Source: Escherichia coli (lineage in GTDB: Bacteria > Pseudomonadota > Gammaproteobacteria > Enterobacterales > Enterobacteriaceae). From it: 64,000 bases of DNA. Below the pieces are notes generated by a model. It saw only the letters and a list, made by a program, of their open reading frames with translations, had not been told where the DNA came from and did no database searches. This document shows, piece after piece, positions 1,851 through 59,803 of this stretch (position 1 is the first letter of the stretch; each line of letters starts with the position of its first letter). The DNA lies in the NCBI RefSeq assembly GCF_001677475.2, contig NZ_CP015229.1; one strand, 5' to 3'. Both the position numbers and the translations under genes were made by a program.

Positions 1851-2567
1851 ATGCTACAGGATGTATTCGAGTCAGAAGAATTTGCTGCCACACCGGTATT
1901 AACCCCGCAGCAGGAGAGCCACTACTTGCAGGCCTATTTACCGTTGGTGCGTAAAGTGGTGCGGCAACTTGCCCCGCAGTGTAATTGCATTATTGACCGT
2001 CAGGATATGGAACAAACGGCGTTAATGGGGCTGCTTAACGCCATTCGTCGCTATGGGCAGCCGGATGAAGGTTTTGCGGGCTATGCCGTGCACCGTATTC
2101 GCGGCGCGATCCTGGATGAGCTGCGCGCTCTCGACTGGCGACCGCGCCAGCTGCGACAGAAATATCATCAGATGAAAGACCTGATTCGCGAAACGCGTAA
2201 AAAACTGGGTCACGAACCGGAGTGGTCAGAACTGGCCGTGGAAGGGATCTCGCATGAAGATTATCTCGAATATCAGCAACTGGAAGGGGCGGAAACACTC
2301 GCCAGTCTGGACGAACTGCTGAACGGTGAAGGGGCAGGCATTCCGCTTGTTGGCAGGGAACTGGAAGATCAGTTTGTCACCCAGCAAATGTTGCAACAGG
2401 CGCTTTCACAATTAAGCGAAAAAGAGCAACTGATCCTCTCCATGTATTACCAGCATGAGATGAATCTCAAAGATATTGCGCTGGTATTAGGGCTAACCGA
2501 GGCCCGAATTTGTCAACTGAATAAACAGATCGCGCAGAAAATTCGTGATTTTGTCTATCCGAATTAA
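1851..2567 (+). CDS. lafS: Sigma-28 (FliA-family) sigma factor for the lateral flagellar system (LafS)
   Basis: 238 aa; sigma-70 region 2-like segment and region 4 HTH (LSEKEQLILSMYYQHEMNLKDIALVLGLTEARICQL). Confidence 0.85.
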   Translation: MLQDVFESEEFAATPVLTPQQESHYLQAYLPLVRKVVRQLAPQCNCIIDRQDMEQTALMGLLNAIRRYGQPDEGFAGYAVHRIRGAILDELRALDWRPRQLRQKYHQMKDLIRETRKKLGHEPEWSELAVEGISHEDYLEYQQLEGAETLASLDELLNGEGAGIPLVGRELEDQFVTQQMLQQALSQLSEKEQLILSMYYQHEMNLKDIALVLGLTEARICQLNKQIAQKIRDFVYPN

Positions 2568-2579
2568 AGTGAAGAAATT

Positions 2580-3443
2580 ATGCAAAAAATATTAGGTTTA
2601 CTGGTGGTGCTCGGCTGCGTATTTGGCGGTTATTTTGAAGCGGGCGGGCAATTAGTGGCTATCTGGCAACCGGCGGAGATGATCATTATTTTGGGTGCCG
2701 GTTTCGGGGCGATGATTATTGGTAACCCGAAACATGTGCTGAAAGAGATTGCCCATCAAATTAAAGGCGTGATCAGTAAAAAACAGCTTGGGCCGGAATT
2801 TCAGCGCCAGCTATTAATGTGCCTGTATGAGTTGCTCGAAATGGTGCAAAACGGCGGCCTGCGCATGCTGGATCAGCATATCGAGCAGCCGGAGGAGAGC
2901 ACTATTTTCCAGAAATACCCGCTGGTGTTAACCCAGAAACGGCTGGTGACCTTTATTGCCGATAACTTTCGCCTGATGGCGATGGGTAAGATTGACGCTC
3001 ATGAACTGGAAGGCATTCTCGATCAGGAACTGGACACCGCTGAAGAGTCGCTGTTAACGCCGTCGCGCTCGCTGCAACGTACCGCCGAAGCGATGCCGGG
3101 ATTTGGTATTTGTGCAGCAGTGTTGGGGATCATCATCACCATGCAGTCGATTGATGGATCTATCGCCCTGATTGGCCTGAAAGTGGCGGCAGCGCTGGTA
3201 GGGACGTTTTTAGGCGTCTTTATCTGCTACTGCCTGATGGACCCGCTCGCCAACGCCATGGAACAACAGGCGCGGGCGGAGCATTCATTGTTGGAGTGCG
3301 TGCGTACCGTGCTGGTGGCGCAGGCGGGCGGTAAACCGACGCTGCTGGCGGTGGACGCCGGGCGTAAGCTGCTGCATCTGGCGTCCAAACCGACCTTCGC
3401 CAACCTCGACGCGTGGGTGAATGCGATGCTGGAGCAAGAATAA
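2580..3443 (+). CDS. lafT: Flagellar stator protein, MotA-like (LafT)
   Basis: 287 aa, multiple transmembrane helices, MotA/TolQ/ExbB-type C-terminal membrane segment; immediately followed by a MotB-like gene. Confidence 0.8.
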   Translation: MQKILGLLVVLGCVFGGYFEAGGQLVAIWQPAEMIIILGAGFGAMIIGNPKHVLKEIAHQIKGVISKKQLGPEFQRQLLMCLYELLEMVQNGGLRMLDQHIEQPEESTIFQKYPLVLTQKRLVTFIADNFRLMAMGKIDAHELEGILDQELDTAEESLLTPSRSLQRTAEAMPGFGICAAVLGIIITMQSIDGSIALIGLKVAAALVGTFLGVFICYCLMDPLANAMEQQARAEHSLLECVRTVLVAQAGGKPTLLAVDAGRKLLHLASKPTFANLDAWVNAMLEQE

Positions 3444-3445
3444 GC

Positions 3446-4369
3446 ATGAGAAAGACGGGCAACCGCCGCGAGCGTGGGGCAAAAACCACCATCGTCCGGC
3501 GGCAGATCAAAAAGAATCATGCCGGGCATCACGGCGGGGCGTGGAAGGTGGCGTTTGCCGACTTTACTTTGGCAATGATGGCGCTGTTTATGACCCTGTG
3601 GATTGTCAACAGCGTCAGTAAATCCGAGCGTGAAAGTATTATCGCCGCGCTGCACGGGCAGTCGATTTTTAACGGTGGCGGGCTGTCGCCGTTAAATAAA
3701 ATCAGCCCGCCTCATCCGCCGAAACCTGCCACCGTGGCGGTGCCGGAAGAGACGGAGAAGAAAGCGCGCGACGTCAACGAGAAAACGGCGCTACTGAAGA
3801 AGAAATCTGCCACCGAGCTTGGAGAGCTGGCAACCAGTATCAACACCATTGCCCGTGATGCGCATATGGAAGCGAATCTGGAGATGGAGATTGTCCCGCA
3901 GGGATTACGCGTGCTGATTAAAGACGACCAGAACCGCAATATGTTTGAACGCGGCAGCGCGAAGATTATGCCGTTCTTTAAAACGCTGCTGGTGGAGTTA
4001 GCGCCAGTGTTCGACTCGCTCGATAACAAAATTATTATTACCGGGCATACTGATGCGATGGCCTACAAAAGCAATATCTACAACAACTGGAACCTTTCGG
4101 GCGATCGCGTGCTTTCGGCCCGTCGGGTGCTGGAAGAGGCCGGAATGCCGGAAGATAAAGTGATGCAGGTGAGCGCGATGGCGGACCAGATGTTGCTGGA
4201 TGCCAAAAATCCGCAAAGCGCGGGCAACCGGCGCATTGAGATTATGGTGCTGACTAAAAGCGCGTCCGATACGCTGTATCAATACTTTGGTCAGCATGGG
4301 GATAAAGTGGTGCAGCCGCTGGTGCAAAAGCTGGATAAGCAGCAGGCGCTTTCGCAGCGAACGCGTTAA
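3446..4369 (+). CDS. lafU: Flagellar stator protein, MotB-like with OmpA-type peptidoglycan-binding domain (LafU)
   Basis: Single N-terminal TM (WKVAFADFTLAMMALFMTLWIV) and C-terminal OmpA-like domain (IITGHTDAMAY...NRRIEIMV). Start chosen at the ATG 3446, 2 nt after the lafT stop; the longest ORF begins at 3413. Confidence 0.8.
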   Translation: MRKTGNRRERGAKTTIVRRQIKKNHAGHHGGAWKVAFADFTLAMMALFMTLWIVNSVSKSERESIIAALHGQSIFNGGGLSPLNKISPPHPPKPATVAVPEETEKKARDVNEKTALLKKKSATELGELATSINTIARDAHMEANLEMEIVPQGLRVLIKDDQNRNMFERGSAKIMPFFKTLLVELAPVFDSLDNKIIITGHTDAMAYKSNIYNNWNLSGDRVLSARRVLEEAGMPEDKVMQVSAMADQMLLDAKNPQSAGNRRIEIMVLTKSASDTLYQYFGQHGDKVVQPLVQKLDKQQALSQRTR

Positions 4370-4405
4370 ATGCTGAATCTTTACGCATTTCTCAAACCCT
4401 GAAAT

Positions 4406-4425
4406 CACTGTATACTTTACCAGTG
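4406..4425 (+). promoter_or_regulatory. LexA (SOS) box upstream of dinB
   Basis: CACTGTATACTTTACCAGTG fits CTG-N10-CAG, about 15 bp upstream of the dinB ATG. Confidence 0.85.
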
Positions 4426-4439
4426 TTGAGAGGTGAGCA

Positions 4440-5495
4440 ATGCGTAAAATCATTCATGTGGATATGGACTGCTTTTTCGCCGCGGTGGAGATGCGCGACA
4501 ATCCCGCCCTGCGCGATATCCCTATTGCTATTGGCGGCAGCCGCGAACGTCGGGGGGTGATCAGCACCGCCAATTATCCTGCGCGTAAATTTGGCGTACG
4601 TAGCGCTATGCCGACAGGGATGGCGCTCAAATTATGCCCACATCTCACCTTGCTTCCGGGGCGCTTTGACGCCTACAAAGAAGCCTCAAATCATATCCGT
4701 GAAATCTTCTCGCGCTACACCTCGCGCATTGAACCGTTGTCACTGGATGAAGCCTATCTCGATGTCACCGATAGCGTCCATTGCCACGGTTCTGCGACCC
4801 TCATCGCCCAGGAAATCCGCCAGACGATCTTCAACGAGCTGCAACTGACGGCGTCTGCGGGCGTGGCACCAGTAAAGTTTCTCGCCAAAATCGCCTCCGA
4901 CATGAATAAACCCAACGGCCAGTTTGTGATTACGCCGGCAGAAGTTCCGGCATTTTTACAAACCTTGCCGCTGGCAAAAATTCCCGGCGTCGGCAAAGTC
5001 TCGGCGGCAAAACTGGAAGCGATGGGGCTACGGACCTGCGGTGATGTGCAAAAGTGTGATCTGGTGATTCTGCTTAAACGCTTTGGCAAATTTGGCCGCA
5101 TTTTGTGGGAGCGTAGTCAGGGGATTGACGAGCGCGACGTTAACAGTGAACGGTTGCGAAAATCCGTCGGCGTGGAACGCACGATGGCGGAAGATATTCA
5201 TCACTGGTCTGAATGTGAAGCGATTATCGAGCGGCTGTATCCTGAACTTGAACGCCGTCTGGCAAAGGTAAAACCTGATTTACTGATTGCCCGCCAGGGG
5301 GTGAAATTAAAGTTCGATGATTTTCAGCAAACCACTCAGGAGCATGTCTGGCCGCGGCTGAATAAAGCTGACTTAATCGCCACCGCGCGTAAAACCTGGG
5401 ATGAACGCCGTGGCGGGCGCGGTGTGCGTCTGGTGGGGCTGCATGTGACGTTGCTTGACCCGCATATGGAAAGACAACTGGTGCTGGGATTATGA
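4440..5495 (+). CDS. dinB: DNA polymerase IV (Y-family translesion polymerase)
   Basis: 351 aa; N-terminus [33 protein letters not shown] is the E. coli DinB sequence as recalled. Confidence 0.97.
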
Positions 5496-16664: not shown

Positions 16665-16740
16665 GCCGATATAGCTCAGTTGGTAGAGCAGCGCATTCGT
16701 AATGCGAAGGTCGTAGGTTCGACTCCTATTATCGGCACCA
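16665..16740 (+). tRNA. thrW: tRNA-Thr (anticodon CGU)
   Basis: 76 nt GCCGATATAGCTCAGTTGGTAGAGCAGCGCATTCGTAATGCGAAGGTCGTAGGTTCGACTCCTATTATCGGCACCA; cloverleaf with CGT anticodon and encoded CCA end. Confidence 0.95.
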
Positions 16741-16754
16741 TTTAAATCAATAAG

Positions 16755-17021
16755 TTACACATCATTAGTACCTTCCTTATTTCTTGACTGGGACAAATTT
16801 GGGACCGATGGGTTCAGAATCGAGTCTATTTGCCGTGCGTGTTCGGTAAGGTGATTAGGTGCGAGGTGAGCATATCGACGAACCATTTCAAGAGTTTCCC
16901 ATCCTCCCATTTCTGTAAGTGCAAGAAGAGAAACACTGGACTGAACCAGCCTGCTTGCCTTTGCTATCAAAGTACCTTGAGGACCAGATGATTTCTGGCG
17001 ATATTTACAGCGCGTCCGCAA
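16755..17021 (-). pseudogene. Tyrosine-recombinase (phage/P4-type integrase) C-terminal remnant
   Basis: Only about 50 C-terminal residues are integrase-like ([34 protein letters not shown], with the catalytic Tyr region); no N-terminal or core domains upstream; adjacent to the tRNA attachment site. Confidence 0.65.
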
Positions 17022-17107
17022 TGAGTTTTTCTCCGTGCCGCCAGTGACGTTCCCCGCTTTTTCAGTGCGGCGATAATATCAGCGGGATGCCAGTCCTGTT
17101 GTGTCAT
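16966..17107 (-). pseudogene. Ner/Nlp(SfsB)-like HTH regulator, 5' fragment fused to the integrase remnant
   Basis: Begins [24 protein letters not shown], matching the Ner/Nlp N-terminus as recalled, then diverges and stops after about 46 codons; a Ner-like segment (LIAKA) continues in the integrase-remnant frame. Confidence 0.45.
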
Positions 17108-17574
17108 ACAACCACCTCGCTGATAAATTTTACGCCGTCGGCGGTGCGCAGCCAGCGCGGGGCTTTGAGTCCTTCCATGAAATACCAGACCAGTTCACAC
17201 AACAGCCCGGTCAGGGTTTGTTCCGTTTTTGGTTCCGCCGGGCGTTCCAGCAGAAGCTGGAGTAGTGCGAGGCAGTATTCGCACAAGGAATCTGGTTCGG
17301 AAATAAAGTGCTCTGGTGTGGCGGGAAGGGTATCAACGGTCAGGCTTTCAATCAGATGCGGCGGGATGGGGTCGTGCAGCGTGGGGTGCAATAGCGCAAG
17401 AGCCGCGTGAAGCCGTCCGCAGAGCGCTAGCCGTAGCGCGGGATCGTCGGTTTCGATCAGGGTTTCGGCGAAGCGGGCGCAGTAATCGGCAAGGACAGTA
17501 AAATCCGTGGTGGCATTGAAGGGGGCGGACAGCAGATCGAGTAAATCGCAGTCAGGGGTGAGGGTTGTAGCCAT
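17104..17574 (-). CDS. Hypothetical protein, 156 aa, acidic and Leu-rich, no recognised domain
   Basis: ORF with an AGGAGA Shine-Dalgarno about 7 nt upstream of the ATG at 17574 (longest ORF starts at 17628); stop overlaps the ATG of the Ner-like fragment (ATGA); GC-rich relative to the neighbouring RT gene. Confidence 0.5.
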   Translation of the reverse strand: MATTLTPDCDLLDLLSAPFNATTDFTVLADYCARFAETLIETDDPALRLALCGRLHAALALLHPTLHDPIPPHLIESLTVDTLPATPEHFISEPDSLCEYCLALLQLLLERPAEPKTEQTLTGLLCELVWYFMEGLKAPRWLRTADGVKFISEVVV

Positions 17575-17917
17575 AGGGCGTCTCCTGTAACGGTTTATTA
17601 TGTCCGCCACTAGAGAGGCTAATCTCATGGGGGGCGGAACCGGACGGGGTTAGCCTTACCGGCGTTACAGGAAACCGGCGCGTCTTGCGACGCCCCCGCC
17701 CGGCCCGCCATTGAGGTGTAGCCGAACGCACGACACAAAAAAGACGCTGGTGCGTCAAGTGTCGCCTGTAACGGTTTTCAGGAGGCTAATCCCGACGCCT
17801 GATTTTGCAGGCGCGGGAGAAAGATACTGCGATTGGTCATGAGTGGCAAGGGCTACATCCTGTTTACCGACATCTCACGCAAAAATACCCTGATTATTAA
17901 TAGCGAAAATCAGTTTC

Positions 17918-20900
17918 TTATTTTGGCGGTAGCTTTTTGCGGTTCTTTGCCAATTGGAATCCTTCAGGTAACGGTTTGAATTTATCGCCGCCTTTAGGCC
18001 AGCGTTTTGCCCTGCTCTGAAATGCCCTTAACGAGTCGATATCCAGTGTTGCAGCGATCACAAAGTCATTATCGCCGCCCTTCACACGAGCAATATCACG
18101 CATAAAGGGTTCTTTTGCCGGGGAACGTACGCGACTATCGCCGTATTTTCGGTTATTCACTAAAATGGTATAGGCATGAATATCCAGCGCTGCTGATTCA
18201 ATCAACGATGCAAACGTATCCAGATCTTTATTCCAGCTCAATACCATTAATGCATCGAGCGCGCCCTGAAAACGGATCCTCGCTTTACTATTCTGGAGTT
18301 CAGAGCAAATCATAACGCCAAAATTGACGCCGTGATGAATATATACCGGCTTACGTTGTTTAACATTAAGTGTCGAGTCCCAAGACTTACCATAAGTTGA
18401 AAATAATGCCTCATCTTCACCTACGGCGGGTTCCAGCTTGGGTTGCCATATTTTGACACTCGCTGGATAGCCGAGTCTGTTATCTGAAAGGACAAGTACG
18501 GCCTCACTCTTCAGTTGATTATCGCCTAAGTGGCGGTATTCTGTTCCCGCAATTAGACTGATACCCGCCGAACTCAAACGATCAGCAATACTGTTAACCC
18601 AGCGTAACGGGATTGAAAGCTCGGGGAATAAAACATAATCAGGTTTAGGAGATAGTTTCAATGTTGCATTAACCAGTTCAGAAATCCGCTGGTACCTTGA
18701 ACGGGACAAGTTAGATTTATTGCAGGCCATTTTAGCCCAGTCGTCTTCCTCTGTTTTAATGCTGGTTAGCGCAACGACAATTTTATGTTTCCTGTCAGTG
18801 CCAATATGAATGAATTTCTTAGGCCGAGCTTTTTTTGTCGCTTCATCTGAGTCCTGCTCCGATGCTAGTAACGTCGGTTTGATCCATACACCGCGTAATG
18901 CTTGAGTATATTTTGCCCAAACGGTGGACGGTCTCTCATCTGGTTTTTTGTCGGATGTAGAGGGTAATCCAACACATTCGGGGGCCAGTTCTGATATTTC
19001 AGCGGGAGTTAAAGGACGTGTAGGGAAAATGTAAGGTAGGTAACTTTCGTTCTTACGATTTCCTTTAGCCACTTTTTCCAGTCGGGTATTCTTGGTTGAT
19101 TTCAAAAATAGCTTAATAACGTCAATATCAATAAGCGATGAGTCCCTCATTAATTTCAGTATTTTAACTTCTTTTTTACGATCACGCTGATTAACAAGTT
19201 TTTCTGCCGACTGACTCTTTACGATCTGTTTATAAGGTTCCTTTGCTAAATCAGCTCGAGCTACCAATGGCGCTTTTAAATAAAAATCTGCTGAATCAAA
19301 GCGAAGATCCAGTAAATCCTTTAGATTTGTCAGACTTTGTGAAATATGATTAAAAAATGTATCCGCAAGGCACTCTTCTTTCTTTGAACGTTTATCAAGA
19401 AATAATCTGTCAGGACTGTAATATCGTGTCGCTGCATCAACAAATAGCCAGCTTAATGTGCCTTTTATACAGCGCCAAAGATCATTTACTGCTCGAGTTT
19501 TGCAACCATTTATAGTCACTTCCTTACCTGAAGTAATCACCGATGCCAACAGGTTGATGGACTCGTAAGCTTTAAGTACAATTTTTTCCGCGTGCTGCCA
19601 TTCATTCATACTGATAGCAAAGCCAAGCAGCCTTGGCAGATAACTAAAATGTGCAAATAGATTATCAGCCCTAAGAATATGGTTGTAGGCAAACTGATAA
19701 AACTCTTCCCGCTGTTCTTTCCATTCACTTGGAGACAGATCTCGTGCCAGTGTTTCAACGTAGCGTAATTGCAGTGACCAGCCCAAACGACGAATGGTTA
19801 ATCCATCCGCACGGCGCAGAGTATCGGCATTTTCACCTACACTACCGGCAGCGGAAAGGACTTTAGCTGCGGTGGAGTGTTCCAGTTGATCCGGTGAAGG
19901 CATCAAGCGGTGTTCACTAGAAAGCTCGTAGATCTCCTTTTCGATACTGTCGAGCAGATCTATTCCTGCCCTCCCTTGAAGCACGAAAAGTTTTTGCTTA
20001 TCGGATTGTAACTGGATGGTGGTCTTACCCTGGAAATGCTCGCCCTGCTGTATTTGCCATATTTGTTTTTTCTCGTTTTTCAGATAAACGCAATCATTGC
20101 CAAGCCTATCTTGCAGCAATAACATAAATTCGTGATTATTAGTAATTTTACCTGTATCGCGTATTACAAGGAACATATCATCGACATAACGACCGTAGTG
20201 AATTGGCGACAGTTTTTCAATGACTAATTTATCCCAATGGTGTAGCAATATATTGGAAATGATCCGACTGGCTGTTAATCCAATGACCAGACCACCATTA
20301 ATAACAGGTGTTTTGTACGCTATTTTTTTTCCAAATGCCGCTGCGCCGTCAGACCAGTGCTTTAAGAATACAGCTAACTGTGCAGTAAACGCTTTTTCAT
20401 GCTCAGTCAGTTTTATGTTTAGTGTGTTATAGAGATCATCAGAGGTTATAGCCAGTGGATCAATAAAATGATAGTAACTTTTTAAATCCAGTGAGGCGGC
20501 GATAATGTCACGATCTTTTTCCAACTCGTCACGTATAGCTTTTAAGCCATCACCACGCCATTTTTGGTAGGGCTGGAAATAGGGGCTAAAAGAACCCACG
20601 GCACTGATATGGAATGGATTATCCTGCTCATTGCTAAATAATTCATCATTACGAATACGTTTTAGCCGCGCGCCATAACAACAGTTGTCTAAGCTGGCAT
20701 CAAATTTATGCCCGACCATATTAATCCATAGTGCAGAGATAATGTGACTATCAACCGGGAAGTCACCAATAATACGAAACTCTGGTATCAGATCAAAATT
20801 ATTAAATAAATGGTCGGCTGCTCGTTTAGGATTAGAAAAGTGGACGTGTCCATTTTGGAATTCATGTTTTTTCTTTGTGGTTAATTTTTTCGGTAACAAA

Positions 20901-21127
20901 CGAAATTTGCCAATCAACTTCTTATTGCTACTGAATCCATCTTCGCTCTGCAAAATATCTAAGAGTTCTTGCAGGTTTTCAATTAATTCCTGCTCATACT
21001 CGGCAAATTTGATAGCAACAGGAAATGTATTCTCAAAGAAGCTATCGGCTTTGGCTTTCCGGTAAGCGACCAGAAGGTCTTCAATCGTCAGATCATCCCA
21101 GCCAGTGAAAGTTGCCTGATATGTCAT
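17918..21127 (-). CDS. Reverse transcriptase fused to a C-terminal nitrilase (CN-hydrolase) domain; UG/Abi-type defence-associated RT (DRT type 1 / UG1-like architecture)
   Basis: 1069 aa. RT motifs: motif A ASLDLKSYYHFID, motif B GLVIGLTASRIISNILL, motif C YGRYVDDMFLV (about aa 310-320). C-terminal ~280 aa carry a nitrilase-like Glu/Cys pattern (VLFPELSIP ... GVMICSELQ). AT-rich gene in an island next to a tRNA. Confidence 0.85.
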   Translation of the reverse strand: MTYQATFTGWDDLTIEDLLVAYRKAKADSFFENTFPVAIKFAEYEQELIENLQELLDILQSEDGFSSNKKLIGKFRLLPKKLTTKKKHEFQNGHVHFSNPKRAADHLFNNFDLIPEFRIIGDFPVDSHIISALWINMVGHKFDASLDNCCYGARLKRIRNDELFSNEQDNPFHISAVGSFSPYFQPYQKWRGDGLKAIRDELEKDRDIIAASLDLKSYYHFIDPLAITSDDLYNTLNIKLTEHEKAFTAQLAVFLKHWSDGAAAFGKKIAYKTPVINGGLVIGLTASRIISNILLHHWDKLVIEKLSPIHYGRYVDDMFLVIRDTGKITNNHEFMLLLQDRLGNDCVYLKNEKKQIWQIQQGEHFQGKTTIQLQSDKQKLFVLQGRAGIDLLDSIEKEIYELSSEHRLMPSPDQLEHSTAAKVLSAAGSVGENADTLRRADGLTIRRLGWSLQLRYVETLARDLSPSEWKEQREEFYQFAYNHILRADNLFAHFSYLPRLLGFAISMNEWQHAEKIVLKAYESINLLASVITSGKEVTINGCKTRAVNDLWRCIKGTLSWLFVDAATRYYSPDRLFLDKRSKKEECLADTFFNHISQSLTNLKDLLDLRFDSADFYLKAPLVARADLAKEPYKQIVKSQSAEKLVNQRDRKKEVKILKLMRDSSLIDIDVIKLFLKSTKNTRLEKVAKGNRKNESYLPYIFPTRPLTPAEISELAPECVGLPSTSDKKPDERPSTVWAKYTQALRGVWIKPTLLASEQDSDEATKKARPKKFIHIGTDRKHKIVVALTSIKTEEDDWAKMACNKSNLSRSRYQRISELVNATLKLSPKPDYVLFPELSIPLRWVNSIADRLSSAGISLIAGTEYRHLGDNQLKSEAVLVLSDNRLGYPASVKIWQPKLEPAVGEDEALFSTYGKSWDSTLNVKQRKPVYIHHGVNFGVMICSELQNSKARIRFQGALDALMVLSWNKDLDTFASLIESAALDIHAYTILVNNRKYGDSRVRSPAKEPFMRDIARVKGGDNDFVIAATLDIDSLRAFQSRAKRWPKGGDKFKPLPEGFQLAKNRKKLPPK

Positions 21128-21422
21128 GCGTTATCGTCCTTAGATTAAAGTCTGTACAGAATTAGCCAGCCGTTTCATGCCCGAAGGAGGTGCTCTTGAC
21201 ACCAGTAATCCATCAGTGAGGCTGGCAATAATTTTGATTTGTATCCATGTTACACGCTCCCCGCAACCAGTCCGAGCATATATTTGTCACATTTTTCCCG
21301 AAAGTGATTAAGTTTGAATTTTTTGTTTAATGTCGATTTTTAGTCGACAAAATGAGGAATAAGTAAATTATTTCTTGCTGTGGCGTATCCCTGAACCTAC
21401 ACTGGTTTAAATATTTGTACTA

Positions 21423-22226
21423 ATGTCTATTCAGGGGCGACATTTGCCAAATTATCTAAACTGGCTGATGCAGAATACGCTACCCGGTCAGGTGCTGCTC
21501 CAGTCATGGCTTACCCGCAACGGCGTAGATCGTAAGCTCTCTTACCTCTATGTCCAGAATGGCTGGCTCAGGCGGATCGCTCACGGCGTATACTGCCGGA
21601 CGGGTCGTGAACCGGACTGGGTGGACGCGGTTTACTGCCTGCAAACACAGTGGGAAAAGCCAGTACGGGTGGCGGGGCTAACCAGCCTTGCGCTTCAGGG
21701 CCATGCGCACTATACCGAACCGGGTAAGCCGCAAATCTGGCTCGCGCTTCCGGCTTACGTCAAACTGCCGGGATGGTTTGCTGCCTTCGAACAATCTGCA
21801 ACATTTATCACGCTGTATACATCGGGCCTTACCGTTGATGTCACGTCATTTACTACGGAACTGAAAATTGGCGACCGGCAGTTAGCAGGCAGTGCCCCGG
21901 AACTGGCCGCGTATGAGATCGCCTGCGGCGTTCCTTCGTTGATATCGTTCGAACATGCCGATGCTCTGTTTCAGGGGATGAATCTTCTCAGCCCGCGTAA
22001 ATTGCAGGCGTTACTCTGCGCCAGTCATTCGGTTAAAACCAACCGGGTGATGCTTTACCTTGCCCGGCGTAATGGACACCCTTATTTTCAGTATATTGAT
22101 CAAAGCGGTATAGAAACAGGTACGGGAAAGCGGCAAATCATACCCGGCGGCTGGCTGGAGCCGGATTATCAAATTACTGTTCCACGCGAATTTAAACCGG
22201 AAGGAGTCGAAGATGGATCTGCGTGA
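21423..22226 (+). CDS. AbiEi-family antitoxin / transcriptional regulator (type IV TA, abortive infection)
   Basis: 267 aa; N-terminal winged-helix pattern (LTRNGVDRKLSYLYVQNGWLRRIAHGVYCRTG) typical of AbiEi; overlaps the downstream nucleotidyltransferase gene by 14 nt. Confidence 0.65.
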   Translation: MSIQGRHLPNYLNWLMQNTLPGQVLLQSWLTRNGVDRKLSYLYVQNGWLRRIAHGVYCRTGREPDWVDAVYCLQTQWEKPVRVAGLTSLALQGHAHYTEPGKPQIWLALPAYVKLPGWFAAFEQSATFITLYTSGLTVDVTSFTTELKIGDRQLAGSAPELAAYEIACGVPSLISFEHADALFQGMNLLSPRKLQALLCASHSVKTNRVMLYLARRNGHPYFQYIDQSGIETGTGKRQIIPGGWLEPDYQITVPREFKPEGVEDGSA

Positions 22227-23133
22227 TAGCTATACCCGGCAGGTCAAACTGTTGATGGCCGCTCTGCCGCATGTGGCGAAGGAGTCCTGTTTCGCGTTGA
22301 AAGGCGGCACGGCAATCAATTTGTTTGTGCAGGATTTTCCCCGTCTGTCGGTGGATATCGATCTGGCGTATAAGACTTTTGCGGATCGCGATACCGATTT
22401 GACGGCGATCAACGACGCTTTGAAGAGAATTACTGCATCGCTGAACAGTAAACCGGGGATTACCGCGATTCGGCAGGAAAATAAAACGGATGAAAAGCGC
22501 ATCATTGTGAATACGGCTGATGCCCAGATTAAGATCGAGGTTAGTCCGGTCTGGCGTGGGCTGTTGTTGCCTCCGGCAGAAATGTCGGTGTGCGAACGTG
22601 TGGAAATGGAGTATGGCTTCACCACTATGAGTGTCGTTTCGCTGGCGGATCTTTATGGCGGTAAAATCTGCGCAGCGCTTGATCGTCAGCACCCGCGCGA
22701 TCTGTTTGATGTGCTGAATATGCTGGAGAAACCGGGACTGATGCGGGAGATCTTTGACGGTTTTCTTTGTTATCTGGCAGGCCATCCCCGCCCCATTGCC
22801 GAGTTGCTGGCCCCAAACTGGGATACAGAGCGGATCACGACGCTGTATGCCCAGGAATTTTCGGGGATGACTCAGCAGGAAACGTCGCTGGAATCGCTGC
22901 TGTCAGTAACGACTTTGCTGCCGCAGGCGTTGAAGTCACATCTTACGGATCTGGATCGCGAGTTCTTGCTCAGTTTTAAGCAAAACAGCCCTGACTGGTC
23001 GCGGTATCGCTATCCTGAAATTCAGCATCTTCCGGCTATTCGCTGGAAGCAACGCAATCTGGCGGTGCTTAAAGATAAAAATCCGGCGAAGTATGTGGCG
23101 GCGGTGAATAAGCTAGAGAGGGTGCTGGAGTAA
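22213..23133 (+). CDS. AbiEii/AbiGii-family nucleotidyltransferase toxin (DUF1814)
   Basis: 306 aa; N-terminal LKGGTAINLF and DIDLAY motifs of the AbiEii nucleotidyltransferase fold; translationally coupled to the upstream AbiEi-like gene. Confidence 0.75.
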   Translation: MDLRDSYTRQVKLLMAALPHVAKESCFALKGGTAINLFVQDFPRLSVDIDLAYKTFADRDTDLTAINDALKRITASLNSKPGITAIRQENKTDEKRIIVNTADAQIKIEVSPVWRGLLLPPAEMSVCERVEMEYGFTTMSVVSLADLYGGKICAALDRQHPRDLFDVLNMLEKPGLMREIFDGFLCYLAGHPRPIAELLAPNWDTERITTLYAQEFSGMTQQETSLESLLSVTTLLPQALKSHLTDLDREFLLSFKQNSPDWSRYRYPEIQHLPAIRWKQRNLAVLKDKNPAKYVAAVNKLERVLE

Positions 23134-35404: not shown

Positions 35405-36019
35405 ATGAATATATTTGAACAAACTCCACCGAACCGCAGACGTTACGGTCTTGCTGCATTCATTGGGCTGATTGCTGGCGTTGTTTCCGCATTTGTGAAG
35501 TGGGGGGCTGAAGTTCCATTGCCGCCACGTAGCCCGGTGGATATGTTTAATGCAGCGTGTGGCCCGGAATCATTAATCAGGGCTGCTGGGCAAATTGATT
35601 GCTCCCGTAATTTTCTCAATCCTCCGTATATTTTTCTTCGGGATTGGTTGGGGCTGACAGATCCAAATGCGGCTGTTTATACCTTCGCCGGGCATGTCTT
35701 TAACTGGGTTGGTGTAACGCACATAATCTTTTCGATAGTTTTTGCCGTTGGTTACTGTGTGGTCGCCGAAGTATTTCCGAAAATTAAACTTTGGCAGGGT
35801 TTACTGGCAGGTGCTTTAGCCCAACTTTTTGTTCATATGATTTCTTTCCCTCTCATGGGACTGACGCCACCTCTGTTTGATCTTCCGTGGTATGAGAATG
35901 TCTCTGAAATTTTTGGACATTTAGTCTGGTTCTGGTCTATTGAAATTATTCGCAGAGATTTACGAAACAGAATTACTCATGAGCCAGACCCTGAGATCCC
36001 TTTAGGCTCAAACAGATAA
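35405..36019 (+). CDS. yagU: Inner-membrane protein YagU (DUF1440)
   Basis: 204 aa, several TM helices; conserved position after the pao operon. Confidence 0.8.
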
Positions 36020-36033
36020 TGTAATGAATGATA

Positions 36034-36060
36034 AAAATGGCGCAAATACAGCGCCATTTT
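36034..36060 (+). terminator. Hairpin terminator downstream of yagU
   Basis: AAATGGCGCAAATACAGCGCCATTT stem-loop followed by a T-run. Confidence 0.65.
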
Positions 36061-36265
36061 TATAGGTTAAAAACATTGCTTTTTATATTCTGATGCAGCT
36101 AGTCAGTGAGCATATCGCGCCACTTCAGGATGATGTAGATCCGAAGAACGCTACAGAAGAGAGGCATTGTTGCTGGCAAATAGAAGAAGTTTCGGGTTTT
36201 GTTGCCCCTAAAAACGAAGCCCCGCTATTACAGTAGGCGGGGCAGTGCAATTAATTATTGCATAT

Positions 36266-43770: not shown

Positions 43771-44150
43771 TTACAGGTGCATTCAGTTTCATTAGTAAAC
43801 CGGAAGTAAATAAGATACGTAGCACATATCAATAAAGGTTAAACGAGATTAAGTTTAATTATTTTCGATTGGGCTTAAATTTATGTTTTTTTCCCGATGA
43901 GTGTCAATATGTGAACGGAAAAGGAATTCAATGGTTAAGTCAATATTTAGAAAAACTGAAAATATTGCTTTTTTGATAAGAAGAAAAAGACATTTGGTTT
44001 CATAAGGTTATTGGCAATATAACGTTCATTTCTTACTTGCATTTTATATTGGTCAGGAATTTTGCCCTGAAGTGTTAGGAATAGTCTTAATGCGCTGTGT
44101 GATGGACTAGTAAAAAAACAAGTTTTAAGGGTAAGGGATAGAATATAAAA

Positions 44151-44378
44151 CTATGATGAGCTGCCATTGAAGATGATTTGCCAATCAGTAAGATATTTTA
44201 ATGGATTAACATGCCGCACAAAATGGTTATAGGTGTTCATTCCAATAAGTGATGGAAAATTGAACCGGGTTATGTACATCATCTGTTCGGTAAGCCCCCT
44301 AAGAGCCAAATTAAGTGAAGTTAAACGAAGGCTGCCAGCTGTCACAGGAACGATGGCCTTTTTGTCAGGGCACTGCAT
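44151..44378 (-). CDS. ykgL: Small hypothetical protein (YkgL-like)
   Basis: 75-aa ORF between ecpR and ykgO, where K-12 has ykgL; no domain recognised. Confidence 0.4.
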   Translation of the reverse strand: MQCPDKKAIVPVTAGSLRLTSLNLALRGLTEQMMYITRFNFPSLIGMNTYNHFVRHVNPLKYLTDWQIIFNGSSS

Positions 44379-44673
44379 TCAGTCATCTGTGCGCATTACT
44401 CTAACTGGCACTCGAACGTCGGCGATGGGGTTGCCGGTGGATCAGGCTGTTCCTGTGGCGTAAACGTTTTTATGTTAGTACCAACAGATTTACCACATTT
44501 ATCATCTTAACAGTTTGAGTGAAAATGCAGGCTGCGCCGCAAAGGGAGGAGACTGAGTGGCGTGTTCAGTCTAAAAGAGAGTTGATGCCAGCATACAGGG
44601 GCGAAGCTGGTCAACAAGTCAACATTAAGATAATGGAATATTCGGAGAGAAACGTCAGGCAGTTGGCCTCAAA

Positions 44674-44784
44674 TGAACAGGAAGAATATATCCCCAGGAA
44701 AATTAATGTTGGTGTTATAAACACACCAACATTAATCCGATCTGATTATTAATCAGACAAATATCGTTAATCCGTCGAATTTTG
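44674..44784. repeat. Intergenic repeat module, split copy, first half
   Basis: Matches 26032-26140 (ATGAACAGGAAGAATA...CCGTCGAATT); ykgO/ykgM follow directly. Confidence 0.7.
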
Positions 44785-44786
44785 AA

Positions 44787-44927
44787 TCAACGTTTTTTCT
44801 TACGACCCTGAACGGCCTTAAAACGTGGATTAGATTTACAAATCACATATAGCCGTCCTTTTCGCTTCACAATCTGACAGTCTGGATGGCGTTCTTTTGC
44901 GGTACGCAGAGAGTTAAGGACTTTCAT
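44787..44927 (-). CDS. ykgO: 50S ribosomal protein L36 paralogue, zinc-independent type
   Basis: 46 aa [46 protein letters not shown]; start overlaps the ykgM stop by 1 nt. Too short for the ORF track; found by manual translation. Confidence 0.9.
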
Positions 44928-45193
44928 CACGCCCCCTTTTTCGTGCTAACAAAACGACCAAAACGTTGGGTGAATCGTTCAACATTTCCTTCTGATGCCA
45001 CTGTTCTCAGCTTCCCTGTATAGAACGGGTGCGATTTAGAAGAGACATCAATTGTCACGTACGGATACGTTACGCCATCCAGCTCAATCTCCCGGTCTGT
45101 TTTGATAGTCGAGCCGATTTTAAAGTACTCATCAACACTGGTGTCGTGGAACACCACAGTACGATACTCAGGATGGATATTGGGTTTCATCAT
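44927..45193 (-). CDS. ykgM: 50S ribosomal protein L31 paralogue, type B (zinc-independent)
   Basis: 88 aa starting [19 protein letters not shown], no Cys zinc ribbon; Zur box immediately upstream. Confidence 0.92.
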
Positions 45194-45198
45194 TTTTA

Positions 45199-45221
45199 CC
45201 TGTTATGTTATAACATAACCG
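45199..45221 (-). promoter_or_regulatory. Zur box in the ykgM promoter
   Basis: Near-perfect palindrome TGTTATGTTATAACATAAC 6-28 bp upstream of the ykgM start. Confidence 0.85.
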
Positions 45222-45477
45222 TAAAGATACATGCTCATCCGGATCATTTCAACACCCAATCCCTGTGACCCTTTGTGGATGTGGAATTTCCGCAACGGGG
45301 AACTCTGGCATTGTTAGCAGCCATTGGTGACGCTCCCATAAACGCCTGGATGAGTGATTGATGATGGTTTTGCTGAGAGTATGGATTTTTCGAGAATGGA
45401 GGTTATCTCTACTTTACTGGCCGATGATTTATCGCAGTATGATTGATTACCTGACAGCGTGTATTCCTCTCCCACGG

Positions 45478-45622
45478 ATATAATAATTACTTACAAAAAG
45501 GGAGAGGATGCATATTTTAAATATCACTGAAGTGAACAGTTTATTGCCGTTATTAATAGAAATGGAGAAATAAATAGGCGTATTCTACAATTGCGACAAA
45601 AACAACGATATTAATCAGTTTA
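45478..45622. repeat. Intergenic repeat module, split copy, second half
   Basis: Matches 26141-26297 (TATTTTAAATATCACTGAAGTGAACAGTTTATTGCCGTTATTAATAGAAATGGAG...AACAACGATATT). Confidence 0.7.
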
Positions 45623-46135
45623 TGACTGATTTGTTGTACTTTATTCTCTTTCATTGGTACTTCCTCGCTTTAAAAAAGAGTGCACTTCGTAAGTGCCCTT
45701 ATATAAATAACGAGTTTGGTCAACCAATTTTTTGACATGTATCACAAATTTGAATAGATGTATTACATCAACTATCTTTTATTGCACCAACGTCATTGAT
45801 ATATGTCGCCTGAAGTCAGTTCCGGGAATGAGTCTGATCTCAAGATTGGCCCAGTCCTGGCGTTGATTGGCGCTGAGGAGCATATCGCATCTCATCATAA
45901 TGTCGTATCTCCTGGGGTGTTATACAAGATATCGTTGTTGGTGACCTGGGAGAGGAATTGAGTTCTATTAAACCGTCAACTATGCCGGATACATACTGGA
46001 TTACACTGCAGGCACGCCTTATGAGAGAACGTGCCGCAGTGACGGGTTAATTATCTGAAAGAATTTGTGAGGCTGTATCGGTTACTCATTGATTTGATAG
46101 TTTTACTCTCGGGAGAGTAATAGATATTTAATCCA

Positions 46136-46379
46136 TTAACGGAAACCAGTGAGTTCCTTTCGATGTCTGAATTTCCTTGGCGTGACATAGGTATATCCTG
46201 TAATTACTAAACCAATATTTTGTGAGCGACGTTTATAATATTCGAGTTCTTGCTCAGAGATGGTTCCATCAGGATTAGCTGACCAGGTCGTCATAGGAGC
46301 CATAACGATACGATTACATGGCTTTGTTTTTTTCTGTCAGCATAAAAGGAGGAAACAGTGATAAGTGTTTATTTGTCAT
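46136..46379 (-). pseudogene. Old-yellow-enzyme/NADH:flavin oxidoreductase family N-terminal remnant (frameshifted, truncated)
   Basis: Manual translation gives MTNKHLSLFPPFML... then, after a frame change, MAPMTTWSANPDGTISEQELEYYKRRSQNIGLVITGYTYV, resembling the OYE N-terminus (xMAPMT...EYY...GLIIT); stop after about 55 codons. Confidence 0.35.
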
Positions 46380-46672
46380 GACAATACCTCAAATGTTTAT
46401 CTGATTTTGATGCGTATATTTTAACTGGTTAGTTGTTACCAGCTTTGGAACCAAGATTTTTGGCTTTGTTTTTATTTATAATTACTGTTAGTGCTTTTAT
46501 TGAATTTATGGTGGAGAAAAGAGTAAAAAAAGAAAGTTAATGATGTGTGTCAGAATATCGGTAAGAAGAATGACGCAATCGTGAGGATACGTTTATTCAT
46601 AATAAATCTCCTGAAAGTTTAGAATTATTTTCTATACAGCCAGATTATCATTGTTACTAATAATGTGGTTAA

Positions 46673-48616
<1,944 letters not shown>

Positions 48617-55673: not shown

Positions 55674-56267
55674 TCAATCTTCAGTTTTTAACGTTGAACT
55701 GGATTCATTACTGTGTTGTTTAAGAATGTCCCGCGCCGAATCTGCCATTATCATGACAGCACCTGCCAGCATCAGAGTATCTTTCAATACCAGACGACCA
55801 GCACCAGATAAATAAGGGAAACCATGATGAGCGTCACCCAATGCGGGTACCCATGCCTCCGGGGTGGTGATTAAAAATGAGAGTGTTACCAGCGGCGTGG
55901 TAAATGCCATCAGCCCTCCCAATAAACCTAACCAGCGATTGACAGGATTAGCCAAAACCAGCAGAGCAATAATCACCTCCACGATGCCAAGACCGTTGGA
56001 AAAACCATAGGTATTATTAGCCGTTTGCCATGCCCTTGCTTCTGGTTTGTATTCGCCTTCGTGAGTCAGATACTGTTTATAGTCTTCTGGGTGTTCATAA
56101 AAGAACGACATTAGTGGACTGTTTGCGACGAATGGTGTAATGCTGTCTGCCTCGTAAGGGACAAACTTTAATAACCCAATCCACATAAAAACAATCGCAA
56201 TACTCAGACGAATCAATGTCAGGCCAATTTTATCTCCCCGACTTAACAGGTGCAGGTATCTTTCCAT
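55674..56267 (-). CDS. rclC: Reactive-chlorine resistance membrane protein RclC (DoxX-like)
   Basis: About 197 aa, multi-pass membrane protein; downstream of rclB. Confidence 0.85.
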   Translation of the reverse strand: MERYLHLLSRGDKIGLTLIRLSIAIVFMWIGLLKFVPYEADSITPFVANSPLMSFFYEHPEDYKQYLTHEGEYKPEARAWQTANNTYGFSNGLGIVEVIIALLVLANPVNRWLGLLGGLMAFTTPLVTLSFLITTPEAWVPALGDAHHGFPYLSGAGRLVLKDTLMLAGAVMIMADSARDILKQHSNESSSTLKTED

Positions 56268-56278
56268 TGTAAACATCC

Positions 56279-56515
56279 TTATTTATACAATACTGCTGTT
56301 GCGGTTGAATTATTATCAATTCGCATCGATGTGACTTTCCAGGATGAAGCATTATATTTTTTGGCCATATCAGCAATGGCATCCTCCAGAACTGTCGGTG
56401 ATGCTGATACTGACGAGACGCTGATATGTTTCAGAATTATTTTATCATCTGCATTGGTGGAAAATGCCATAACGCCAGATAATAGTGTTGCAAATAAAAC
56501 AGATTTTTTAAACAT
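56279..56515 (-). CDS. rclB: Reactive-chlorine resistance periplasmic protein RclB (DUF1471)
   Basis: 78 aa from MFKKSVLFATLLSGVMAFSTNA (signal peptide); the ORF extension to 56563 runs into the IS end. Confidence 0.8.
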   Translation of the reverse strand: MFKKSVLFATLLSGVMAFSTNADDKIILKHISVSSVSASPTVLEDAIADMAKKYNASSWKVTSMRIDNNSTATAVLYK

Positions 56516-56563
56516 ATAAAATACCATCAATGAAGTGATTAAGAAGTTAGGTAGTGCATCCAA

Positions 56564-56959
56564 TTAGTAGAACATGTGTTTTTCGATAAACGCTCCGATC
56601 ACTTTTTCGTGGATCTCAACTGAGCGTGAGAAGCAGATTGTTTTACGAGCCAACCGCTTAATGCGGGTGCGTAGCGTCAGATTATTACGCTCAATGCGTT
56701 GGGTGAATATTTTGCCGGTCAGATGCTTATTCTTCGGCACCTCCCGGCCATAGCTGCCCCAGTCATCGCTGGTCAGCATGCCGATGTTGAAGGGTGTAAG
56801 CAGTGCCAGTAGCTCCCGGCACGTTTGATCGGTTCGGGGACCAAAAGTGTAGGCCAGTACACCGCCTGTTTTGGTGTTGTACGCGTACCAGAGCCAGTGT
56901 TGCCGGGCTTTACTGCCAACGTAGCTCCATTGCTCATCAAGCTCGCAGATAAGCGCCAC
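56564..56959 (-). CDS. insB: IS1 transposase InsB' (ATG-bounded part; the InsAB' fusion frame extends upstream by frameshift)
   Basis: 131 aa with IS1 InsB similarity (DEQWSYVGSKARQ...YTQRIERNNLTLRT...). Confidence 0.8.
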   Translation of the reverse strand: MALICELDEQWSYVGSKARQHWLWYAYNTKTGGVLAYTFGPRTDQTCRELLALLTPFNIGMLTSDDWGSYGREVPKNKHLTGKIFTQRIERNNLTLRTRIKRLARKTICFSRSVEIHEKVIGAFIEKHMFY

Positions 56960-56985
56960 ATCAGCATGGGCAACAGGCGAAGACG

Positions 56986-57258
56986 TTATTCGCTTTGGCG
57001 CGAGTTTTTTAAAGTCCGGATGACGGTGTTAATACCAATTTTCAGTGTCCTGGCGGTATCGCGAACCCCGGCACCATTAAAGGCCATTTCAGTTATCAGC
57101 TCTTTCATACCCGGCTTACGTGCTTGATAAGTATAAGTGAGCTGAAACACACGGTGGCAGTCACGGCAGCGAAATCTGTCACGGCCTTTAGGGTTCTGAC
57201 CATGGCGGTAAACCTGAGCTGACTGACAACGGGGACAATGAATATTAACGCTGGCCAT
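56986..57258 (-). CDS. insA: IS1 protein InsA (zinc-finger/HTH transposition regulator)
   Basis: 90 aa MASVNIHCPRCQSAQVYRHG... with CxxC...CxxC and HTH; divergent from K-12 IS1A InsA but clearly the same family. Confidence 0.85.
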   Translation of the reverse strand: MASVNIHCPRCQSAQVYRHGQNPKGRDRFRCRDCHRVFQLTYTYQARKPGMKELITEMAFNGAGVRDTARTLKIGINTVIRTLKNSRQSE

Positions 57259-57397
57259 GAGATAACCTCAAAAGCCCGTATTATACATCAGATTCAACTA
57301 ATTAGAGACATCACCAGAAGTTATAAAGTAACAGGGAATTAATAAGATTCTTTTCTCTGAGACGCCAGAATATTTGTTCTGGCGTCTGATTTTGAGT

Positions 57398-58723
57398 TTA
57401 TTTAACTAATGAAAATAGATCATTGAGTGATTCGCTCATCGACGGATGAGTAAATATCTGATCGCGTAATATGCTATAAGGCAGCCCGGCATCCATCACC
57501 ATTTTCACTATATTGATCATCTCGTGGGAGTCAACACACAGCAGTGATGCTCCTAATATACGTTGGGTTTTATTATCAACAATCGCTTTTAATACCCCAC
57601 GGGTATCGTTCATCACTCTTGCGCGCGGAATTGCAGCTACAGGCAATGTCACCACCTGAATATCAGCACCACTCTCTCTGGCCTGTTCTTCTGTCATACC
57701 AACCCTGGACAGTGGCGGTGTCATGAATACGGAATAAGGCACATTTTTCCGATCATCAGTACTACGTCTGCCTTCTCCCAGCAACTCATCACGCACAATG
57801 CGGTAATCATCCAGTGAAATATAAGTAAATTGCAGCCCGCCGGTAACATCTCCCATCGCCCAAATATTGTCTGCGGTGGTATGTAATTGCTTGTCAACGA
57901 CAATTGCCCCACGTTCGTTTACTGCGATACCTGCATTTTCTGGATGTAACGAAGCGGTAGCCGGTTGACGACCGGAAGCTATTAACAGTGCATCCACCGC
58001 CAGTTGGGCGTGCTCGCTATGCACTTGCACTTGATTTTCATGGTGACTGATTCGCTCCACATGGGCATTGAGGATAATATCGACGCCCTGATCGCGTAAA
58101 ATCGTCGCGATATTATCAGCAATATCCCGATCTTCCCGAGGCAAAAACAGCGAAGCTGCTTCTAAAATGGTTACCTTGCTGCCAAAATTAGCGAACATAG
58201 AGGCGAACTCAACGCCAATATATCCGCCGCCCAAAATACCTAAATGCCCAGGCAATTCTTTTAGATTAAGTAATCCGGTGCTGTCATATACACCAGGCGT
58301 GGTGGTAATTCCAGGAATTGGCGGAACCACGGTTTGTGCACCGGTATTAATAAAAATTTTCTCGCCATGAATCTCCAGATTTCCCTCAGGCCGATGAACA
58401 CGCAGGCTATTATTATTGATAAACTCCGCCTGGCCGTCGATCACGTCGATATTGGGCATATCCGCAAGATTATGAAAATTCTTATTACGTAAAAAATTAA
58501 CCACTTCATTTTTACGCTGTATGGCACGGACAAAATCTGTGTGCTGCTGTGCGTCATGAACCAATGTTTTGGTTGGGATGCAGCCGATATTAATACAGGT
58601 CCCGCCATACATTGCATTTGATTGTTCGATGAGAGCCACTCGCCAACCTGCTTTTGCCAGCGTGACGGCTAATGTTTTTCCCGCCTTGCCAAAACCAATA
58701 ATAACTGCCTGATATTTATTCAT
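57398..58723 (-). CDS. rclA: Reactive-chlorine resistance flavoprotein disulfide reductase RclA
   Basis: 441 aa from MNKYQAVIIGFGKAGKTLA; FAD-binding GxGxxG and redox-active CxxxxC (GGTCINIGCIPTK). Confidence 0.9.
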   Translation of the reverse strand: MNKYQAVIIGFGKAGKTLAVTLAKAGWRVALIEQSNAMYGGTCINIGCIPTKTLVHDAQQHTDFVRAIQRKNEVVNFLRNKNFHNLADMPNIDVIDGQAEFINNNSLRVHRPEGNLEIHGEKIFINTGAQTVVPPIPGITTTPGVYDSTGLLNLKELPGHLGILGGGYIGVEFASMFANFGSKVTILEAASLFLPREDRDIADNIATILRDQGVDIILNAHVERISHHENQVQVHSEHAQLAVDALLIASGRQPATASLHPENAGIAVNERGAIVVDKQLHTTADNIWAMGDVTGGLQFTYISLDDYRIVRDELLGEGRRSTDDRKNVPYSVFMTPPLSRVGMTEEQARESGADIQVVTLPVAAIPRARVMNDTRGVLKAIVDNKTQRILGASLLCVDSHEMINIVKMVMDAGLPYSILRDQIFTHPSMSESLNDLFSLVK

Positions 58724-58948: not shown

Positions 58949-59803
58949 ATGGATGCCCTTAGCCGTTTGTTGATGCTTAACGCTCCACAAGGAACGATCG
59001 ATAAGAATTGCGTGTTAGGAAGTGACTGGCAGCTTCCACATGGTGCCGGGGAATTATCGGTTATTCGTTGGCATGCGTTAACGCAAGGAGCGGCGAAGCT
59101 GGAAATGCCGACGGGAGAGATTTTTACATTACGCCCGGGAAATGTGGTCCTGCTACCACAAAATTCAGCTCATCGCCTGAGTCATGTCGATAATGAATCG
59201 ACCTGTATTGTCTGTGGCACTCTTCGGCTGCAACATTCGGCGCGTTATTTTTTAACGTCTTTGCCGGAAACGCTGTTTTTAGCACCAGTTAACCACAGCG
59301 TGGAATATAACTGGCTGAGGGAGGCGATCCCGTTTTTACAACAGGAATCCAGATCGGCGATGCCGGGAGTGGATGCACTGTGTAGCCAGATCTGCGCTAC
59401 ATTCTTTACCCTCGCGGTGCGTGAGTGGATTGCACAGGTTAATACTGAGAAAAACATTCTCAGTTTGCTTCTGCATCCACGTCTTGGTGCGGTAATACAG
59501 CAAATGCTGGAAATGCCAGGACACGCCTGGACCGTCGAATCGCTGGCCAGCATCGCCCACATGTCCCGGGCAAGTTTTGCCCAGCTTTTCCGTGATGTTT
59601 CCGGAACCACGCCGCTGGCTGTATTAACAAAGTTGCGTCTACAAATAGCGGCCCAGATGTTTTCCCGGGAAACGCTCCCTGTTGTGGTGATCGCTGAGTC
59701 AGTAGGCTATGCCAGTGAATCATCTTTTCACAAGGCGTTTGTCCGCGAGTTTGGTTGTACCCCGGGCGAATATCGGGAAAGGGTCAGACAGCTTGCACCC
59801 TGA
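58949..59803 (+). CDS. rclR: Reactive-chlorine-sensing AraC-family activator RclR
   Basis: 284 aa; C-terminal AraC HTH; divergent from rclA. Confidence 0.88.
   Translation: MDALSRLLMLNAPQGTIDKNCVLGSDWQLPHGAGELSVIRWHALTQGAAKLEMPTGEIFTLRPGNVVLLPQNSAHRLSHVDNESTCIVCGTLRLQHSARYFLTSLPETLFLAPVNHSVEYNWLREAIPFLQQESRSAMPGVDALCSQICATFFTLAVREWIAQVNTEKNILSLLLHPRLGAVIQQMLEMPGHAWTVESLASIAHMSRASFAQLFRDVSGTTPLAVLTKLRLQIAAQMFSRETLPVVVIAESVGYASESSFHKAFVREFGCTPGEYRERVRQLAP

Follow-up and report, generated by a model that had tools for sequence, protein, structure and literature searches.

IS1-family insertion sequences are ∼768 bp long and carry a terminal inverted repeat at either end (IRL and IRR), together with the genes insA and insB', which are connected through a frameshift at an A6C motif (PMC12903888). 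Their own promoter, which is weak and repressed by InsA, overlaps IRL, and the target duplications that they leave are 8 or 9 bp in length (PMC12903888). The rclABC genes constitute a single operon controlled by RclR, in which rclB and rclC mRNAs are less abundant than rclA mRNA and in which null mutants of rclB and rclC are sensitive to HOSCN (PMC12096828). What becomes of such an operon when an IS1-family element is placed between its first and second genes? Here, we describe this arrangement in the window, by which we mean the whole 64,000-nucleotide stretch of Escherichia coli DNA that was analyzed.

An IS1-family element between rclA and rclB

We named the rcl genes after their homologues in strains Z247, GF131, and PapRG-04-4, as annotated by RefSeq. 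The regulator gene rclR is divergent from rclA-rclB-rclC, and the native spacer between rclA and rclB is 108 bp long and AT-rich. The host locus consists of the following features.

58949-59803, plus strand: rclR, the divergent regulator of rclABC
57398-58723, minus strand: rclA, 441 aa, located upstream of the IS; public assemblies contain the identical protein
57360-57387, no strand: native perfect hairpin in the rclA-rclB spacer, with a stem of 11 to 12 bp; also present in IS-free genomes
56279-56515, minus strand: rclB, 78 aa, downstream of the IS
55674-56267, minus strand: rclC, 197 aa

Between the spacer hairpin and rclB lies the element, with the features listed here in the direction of transcription of the operon.

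57316-57323, no strand: right copy of the target-site duplication, AGAAGTTA, found by direct-repeat search
56550-57315, minus strand: IS1-family insertion sequence, IS1N-related variant, 766 bp, identified by sequence comparison and profile match
57293-57315, minus strand: IRL, the left terminal inverted repeat at the promoter-proximal end, reading GGTGATGTCTCTAATTAGTTGAA on the minus strand
56986-57258, minus strand: insA, encoding a 90-aa zinc-finger/HTH regulator (IS positions 58-330)
57004-57010, minus strand: A6C (AAAAAAC) programmed -1 frameshift motif (IS positions 306-312)
56564-57258, minus strand: insAB', the transframe gene for the transposase, which is 231 aa long once the -1 shift has occurred
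56564-56959, minus strand: insB' frame
56550-56572, minus strand: IRR, the right terminal inverted repeat at the end after insB', GGTAGTGCATCCAATTAGTAGAA, facing rclB
56542-56549, no strand: left copy of the target-site duplication, AGAAGTTA, found by direct-repeat search and single-copy in empty sites

The second reading frame of the element overlaps insA and is entered via the motif TTAAAAAACTC, where a -1 shift yields an uninterrupted InsAB' protein of 231 aa. This protein scored 261 bits on the NCBIfam equivalog profile NF033558 (transpos_IS1), for which the cutoff is 100, with an E value of 7.8e-78 and across profile positions 1-199 of 199, and its N-terminal part also matched NF050000, the IS1/IS1595 N-terminal zinc-binding domain. 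The DEQW, SDDW, and QRIER motifs of InsAB' align with those of the IS1A InsAB', the second motif reading (T/S)D(G/D)W across the pair; by analogy with the IS1 DDE literature, the three motifs would contain the putative D/D/E catalytic residues. The element thus combines the features by which IS1 is recognized, namely, the profile match, the size with imperfect inverted repeats, insA and insB' with an A6C frameshift, and an 8-bp target duplication.

The terminal inverted repeats are imperfect, with 17 of 23 nt complementary, and both begin with GGT. Within the 64-kb window, either end sequence was found a single time, compared to 0 expected occurrences in shuffles. Both copies of AGAAGTTA directly adjoin the tips of the inverted repeats with no gap, and the ninth base outside the duplication differs between the two sides (A versus C), so the duplication is 8 bp long. 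For any one fixed pair of positions, the chance that two 8-mers match is 4^-8, or ∼1.5e-5; other two-copy repeats of 8 nt in the region occur at chance level, and none of them adjoins the ends of the inverted repeats. From the end of the IS (56550) to the ATG of rclB (56515) there are 34 bp, and the genes of the element share the minus strand and the direction of transcription with rclA-rclB-rclC.

A first-pass annotation, made from the sequence alone, had described a 766-bp IS1-family element with IS1-like inverted repeats and insA/insB' open reading frames, flanked by a perfect 8-bp duplication, located between rclA and rclB at 34 bp upstream of rclB, and co-oriented with the operon. Our coordinates and the 261-bit match bear out each of these points, including the presence of AGAAGTTA twice and next to both tips. 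The span that it gave (56541-57323) was correct at its end but started one base early, the left duplication occupying 56542-56549.

Relatives and distribution of the element

The architecture of the element, with insA, insB', and the TTAAAAAACTC frameshift, is shared with classical IS1 (IS1A, IS1R, and IS1E of E. coli K-12 and R100). Classical copies are ∼768 bp long, have imperfect inverted repeats starting with GGT, and are flanked by 8- to 9-bp duplications, whereas the element measures 766 bp. The first-pass annotation had called InsA divergent from the K-12 copies of IS1, and we reached the same view: against IS1A (the K-12-type element, represented by the copy in strain Z247), identity was ∼54% at the nucleotide level, 45% at the amino acid level for the InsA part, and 44% for InsAB', and the sole blastn match between the two was the 11-nt frameshift site.

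The nearest named element is IS1N, whose copy on a plasmid of Shigella dysenteriae ATCC 13313 is likewise 766 bp long and aligns without indels at 92.7% nucleotide identity (710 of 766 positions), leaving 56 substitutions. The two InsAB' proteins are identical at 223 of 231 residues (96.5%), and the A6C site is shared. IRL is the same in both except at position 8, the IRR tip reads GGTAGTGCATCC in the element and GGTGATGCTTCC in IS1N, and the IS1N copy that we examined is also flanked by an 8-bp duplication (CTAAATTG). By ISfinder convention, members of one isoform share at least roughly 95% of their nucleotides and 98% of their amino acids. With 92.7% and 96.5%, respectively, the element falls under this threshold, and we therefore rejected its assignment to the same isoform as IS1N and regard it as an IS1N-related but distinct element. 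Its protein counterpart in IS1N carries the PGAP name “IS1-like element IS1N family transposase,” and a literature search on IS1N returned nothing relevant to the present variant.

How widespread is this variant? Of 5,426 complete E. coli genomes, 748 contained full-length matches (at least 80%), which were located on chromosomes as well as on plasmids, and the number of copies per genome among these 5,426 reached at least 40. Many complete E. coli genomes have copies that differ from the element by 1 base (99.9% identity). RefSeq labels these copies “IS1 family transposase, programmed frameshift” and not IS1N, and PLSDB labels them only “IS1 family transposase.” The sole base at which the element departs from the other aligned copy is a T in place of C at IRL position 8 (window position 57308); IS1N also has C at this position, and the T is private to the copy in the window. 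We note that this position falls in the region to which InsA and the transposase bind and in which the promoter lies, and the change might affect the activity of this copy.

Outside this set, the exact IRR of the element also occurs in Pluralibacter gergoviae and in the species representative of a cryptic-clade Escherichia. P. gergoviae ATCC 33028 has a full-length 766-bp copy of the variant at 728-1493 with no flanking direct repeat, which suggests that copies later rearranged with each other or that the structure is composite.

All six other independent copies of the variant for which we read the flanks have 8-bp duplications, each of a different sequence, which makes 8 bp the normal length for this variant. 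Two of the six insertions are in different prophage regions, one of which is a capsid/protease region; the other four are within or next to an Imm57 gene, bluF, an frv/PTS gene, and yjdJ. The occurrence of near-identical copies at many sites, each with its own duplication, suggests that the element is autonomous and mobile and apparently active.

Expression of rclB and rclC downstream of the insertion

Does the insertion alter the expression of the genes behind it? Insertions of classical IS1 exert strong polarity whichever way they are oriented. On the basis of this behavior and of the ∼400 nt of insB' RNA that would be essentially untranslated, polarity is a plausible expectation here as well, and RclR-dependent expression of rclB and rclC would likely be reduced. 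No promoter-like site in the rcl direction was predicted in the native rclA-rclB spacer, which agrees with rclABC being one RclR-controlled operon. We also considered whether the insertion destroyed an internal promoter of rclB and rejected this, as none was predicted in the native spacer. Across the junction between IRR and rclB, a consensus scan found no outward promoter, and the best -35/-10 pairs that could be picked out by eye matched at 3/6 plus 3/6 positions. The first-pass annotation had left the choice between polar effects and IS-derived promoters open; with neither a junction promoter nor a native-spacer promoter predicted, polarity is the likelier of the two.

The T-run of the native spacer hairpin is confined to the plus strand, which is antisense to rcl, and the hairpin therefore does not count as a canonical terminator of rcl transcription; in the sense RNA, it folds at -19.8 kcal/mol. 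The IS is located downstream of this hairpin and leaves the 34-bp rclB leader and the ribosome-binding region intact. An Rfam scan of the whole window at gathering thresholds returned no known RNA family at the rcl locus.

We consider it very probable that the locus is best explained by a recent transposition of an IS1N-related element into the rclA-rclB spacer. The comparisons show the anatomy and family of the element, the empty site with one AGAAGTTA in near-isogenic genomes, and how rare the insertion is, lowered rclBC expression being the part of this account that we infer. In this account, an element of a type common on E. coli chromosomes and plasmids jumped recently into the AT-rich 108-bp spacer, and a staggered cut at the target gave rise to the 8-bp duplication AGAAGTTA that is typical of the variant. 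Having no recognizable promoter of their own, rclB and rclC would rely on the RclR-controlled rclA promoter. The 766-bp insert would be mostly untranslated past insA, since frameshifting into insB' is expected to be rare, and it may act as a polar block in the way that classical IS1 does in both orientations. Such a block would lower the expression of rclBC that is induced by HOCl or HOSCN. Weak, InsA-repressed read-out from the IS promoter may add a low RclR-independent level, and rclA and rclR would be unaffected.

One alternative is that the insertion is functionally neutral, with transcription from the rclA promoter passing through the co-oriented IS and inducing rclBC adequately. Several features are consistent with this. 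Within the IS, the sense strand had no predicted intrinsic terminator, so substantial read-through could occur. A scan of the sense RNA in windows of 78 nt gave an unremarkable C/G ratio, with no marked C-rich, G-poor stretch and no strong C-over-G bias marking a Rho loading site, and is uninformative in this respect. Both the ribosome-binding region of rclB and the 34-bp stretch preceding its ATG are preserved, and the element is oriented with the operon. However, the strong polarity of classical IS1 in either orientation and the length of essentially untranslated insB' both weigh against full read-through, and the native transcript already falls after rclA (PMC12096828). We therefore hold neutrality to be rather unlikely.

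A second alternative is that a promoter of the IS, either through its own read-out or as a hybrid formed at IRR, uncouples rclBC from RclR and makes their expression constitutive, an outcome that might have been selected. The element has a perfect TATAAT at IS positions 31-36, upstream of insA, with no sense-strand terminator predicted between it and rclB. IS1 ends are able to create hybrid promoters in some contexts, and a second, independent IS1 insertion is found 2 bp away in strain Z247. However, the scan described above detected no promoter-like site leading from IRR into rclB, and the IS1A in Z247 has the opposite orientation, so that no promoter mechanism could be common to the two insertions. 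The IS1 promoter is, in addition, weak and repressed by InsA (PMC12903888). Taken together, these data make an IS-derived promoter an improbable explanation, and reduced, polar expression of rclBC continues to be the reading that we prefer. Our search of the literature on IS insertions in rclB found none.

Occupancy of the spacer in other genomes and age of the insertion

Two draft genomes, GCA_966519355.1 and GCA_019138635.1, were found by exact-protein look-up with the RclA of the window and differ from it by 0 to 3 SNPs over 9.3 kb of flank. On the rclA side, 5,408 bp of flank align with GCA_966519355.1 at 100%, and on the rclB side, the alignment of 3,926 bp contains 2 mismatches; for GCA_019138635.1 (99.95% identical), there are 3 mismatches on the rclA side and 0 on the rclB side. 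In both of these near-isogenic drafts, the two flank alignments overlap by exactly 8 bp, and the site reads ...GTGATTAAGAAGTTATAAAG..., with a single AGAAGTTA and no IS. The empty site of near-identical relatives and of strain GF131 reads ...GTGATTAAGAAGTTATAAAGTAAC..., again with one AGAAGTTA. Comparison with insertion-free strains was one of the checks that the first-pass annotation had proposed, and it named a single AGAAGTTA with element ends located elsewhere as an outcome that would speak against its reading; we found AGAAGTTA to be single in those strains and the ends to be where it had placed them.

Among contigs that encode an identical RclA, 23 of the 23 that we read have the uninterrupted gene order with rclB 108 bp after rclA, and the same is true for 24/24 contigs with an identical FdeC. 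Of the 5,426 complete E. coli genomes, 5,066 have a contiguous empty site; the IS is absent from this rclA-rclB site in all 5,426. In 54 complete genomes there was a match but no contiguous (at least 80%) empty site; of these, we examined Z247 and one plasmid case. The insertion junction reads GAAGTGATTAAGAAGTTA followed directly by GGTAGTGCATCC, and a scan of the GTDB species-representative genomes for an exact 39-nt junction sequence gave 0 matches.

Against the best of the 5,426 complete E. coli genomes, the chromosomal backbone of the window (1-56541) reaches only 96.4 to 97.6% identity, yet a few drafts (GCA_966519355.1, GCA_019138635.1, and GCA_012921415.1) are essentially identical to it; the lineage seems to be unrepresented among complete genomes. 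A defense island at 16665-23133 adjoins a tRNA-Thr(CGT) gene (16665-16740). It contains Rfam matches to C4 antisense RNA (17627-17715, minus strand) and isrK (17737-17814, minus strand), a gene for a 1,069-aa RT-nitrilase (17918-21127, minus strand) that PADLOC matched to RT_UG5-nitrilase (DRT) with 1032 bits, and an AbiEi/AbiEii pair (21423-23133, plus strand). The Rfam family IS009 RNA (RF02111) was matched at 36025-36223 on the plus strand with 193.5 bits, directly downstream of a yagU-like open reading frame (35405-36019). Between ykgR and fdeC (∼44000-47700), the window has ∼3.9 kb less DNA than strain PapRG-04-4 and lacks genes for a flavin oxidoreductase, an alpha/beta hydrolase, one LysR regulator, and one aldo/keto reductase; this short form is also found in relatives with an identical FdeC.

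The empty site in relatives separated by 0 to 3 SNPs, the absence of the insertion from all 5,426 complete genomes, and the difference of one base from other copies strongly support that the insertion is recent, unrearranged, and specific to the strain or to a narrow lineage, as judged from sequence comparison. The words “recent” and “unrearranged” in the first-pass annotation hold up well in light of this comparison.

The spacer has been entered by other elements. In E. coli Z247 (NZ_CP021207.1), an IS1A at 1899-2666 occupies the same spacer at the equivalent of window positions ∼56540-56547, flanked by an 8-bp duplication (TAAGAATT) that is offset by 2 bp from the AGAAGTTA target. It is another isoform, in the opposite orientation and in an unrelated strain, and it represents an independent event. 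In a separate observation, rclA is found alone at 154 places on E. coli plasmids. In the 2244-5229 region of p13C1065T-2 (NZ_CP019261.1), rclA is bounded by IS26 on the rclB side and by IS1SD on the rclR side, and in this plasmid, the one examined, the IS26 boundary is ∼20 bp from the insertion point in the window.

Could the spacer be a recurrent landing site for IS elements, its occupation being selected for uncoupling or silencing rclBC with respect to rclA? Within ∼22 bp there are three independent events, namely, the IS1N-like element, the IS1A of Z247, and the IS26 boundary on the plasmid. IS1 prefers AT-rich DNA, and this preference is the simplest reading of the clustering in the spacer; selection on the site is, in our opinion, quite improbable. 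If it were true and the insertions were enriched beyond what AT-richness provides, it would point to selection on the ratio of rclA to rclBC expression. An assembly artifact (a misplaced repeat copy) or an old insertion fixed in the lineage is scarcely credible: the junction has 0 matches among GTDB species representatives and was not seen among the contigs with exact RclA or FdeC proteins, but real transposition is marked by just such an exact 8-bp duplication of a sequence that near-identical genomes have once, a mark that misassembly does not create, and relatives with 0 to 3 SNPs over 9.3 kb that lack the IS exclude an old insertion.

A recent transposition of the IS1N-related element is thus the reading that we retain. 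It is an ordinary and already-known kind of event, in which a widely annotated IS1-family element entered a known operon by a standard mechanism; what is new is confined to where the element landed in this strain, and the event adds nothing new on IS1 biology or on the Rcl system. For this strain, the insertion is a clean, strain-specific typing marker. If the insertion is polar, it could reduce or decouple the tolerance to HOCl and HOSCN that depends on RclB and RclC while leaving the RclA reductase intact, and the strain would be a natural polar mutant that can be compared with near-isogenic relatives carrying the empty site.
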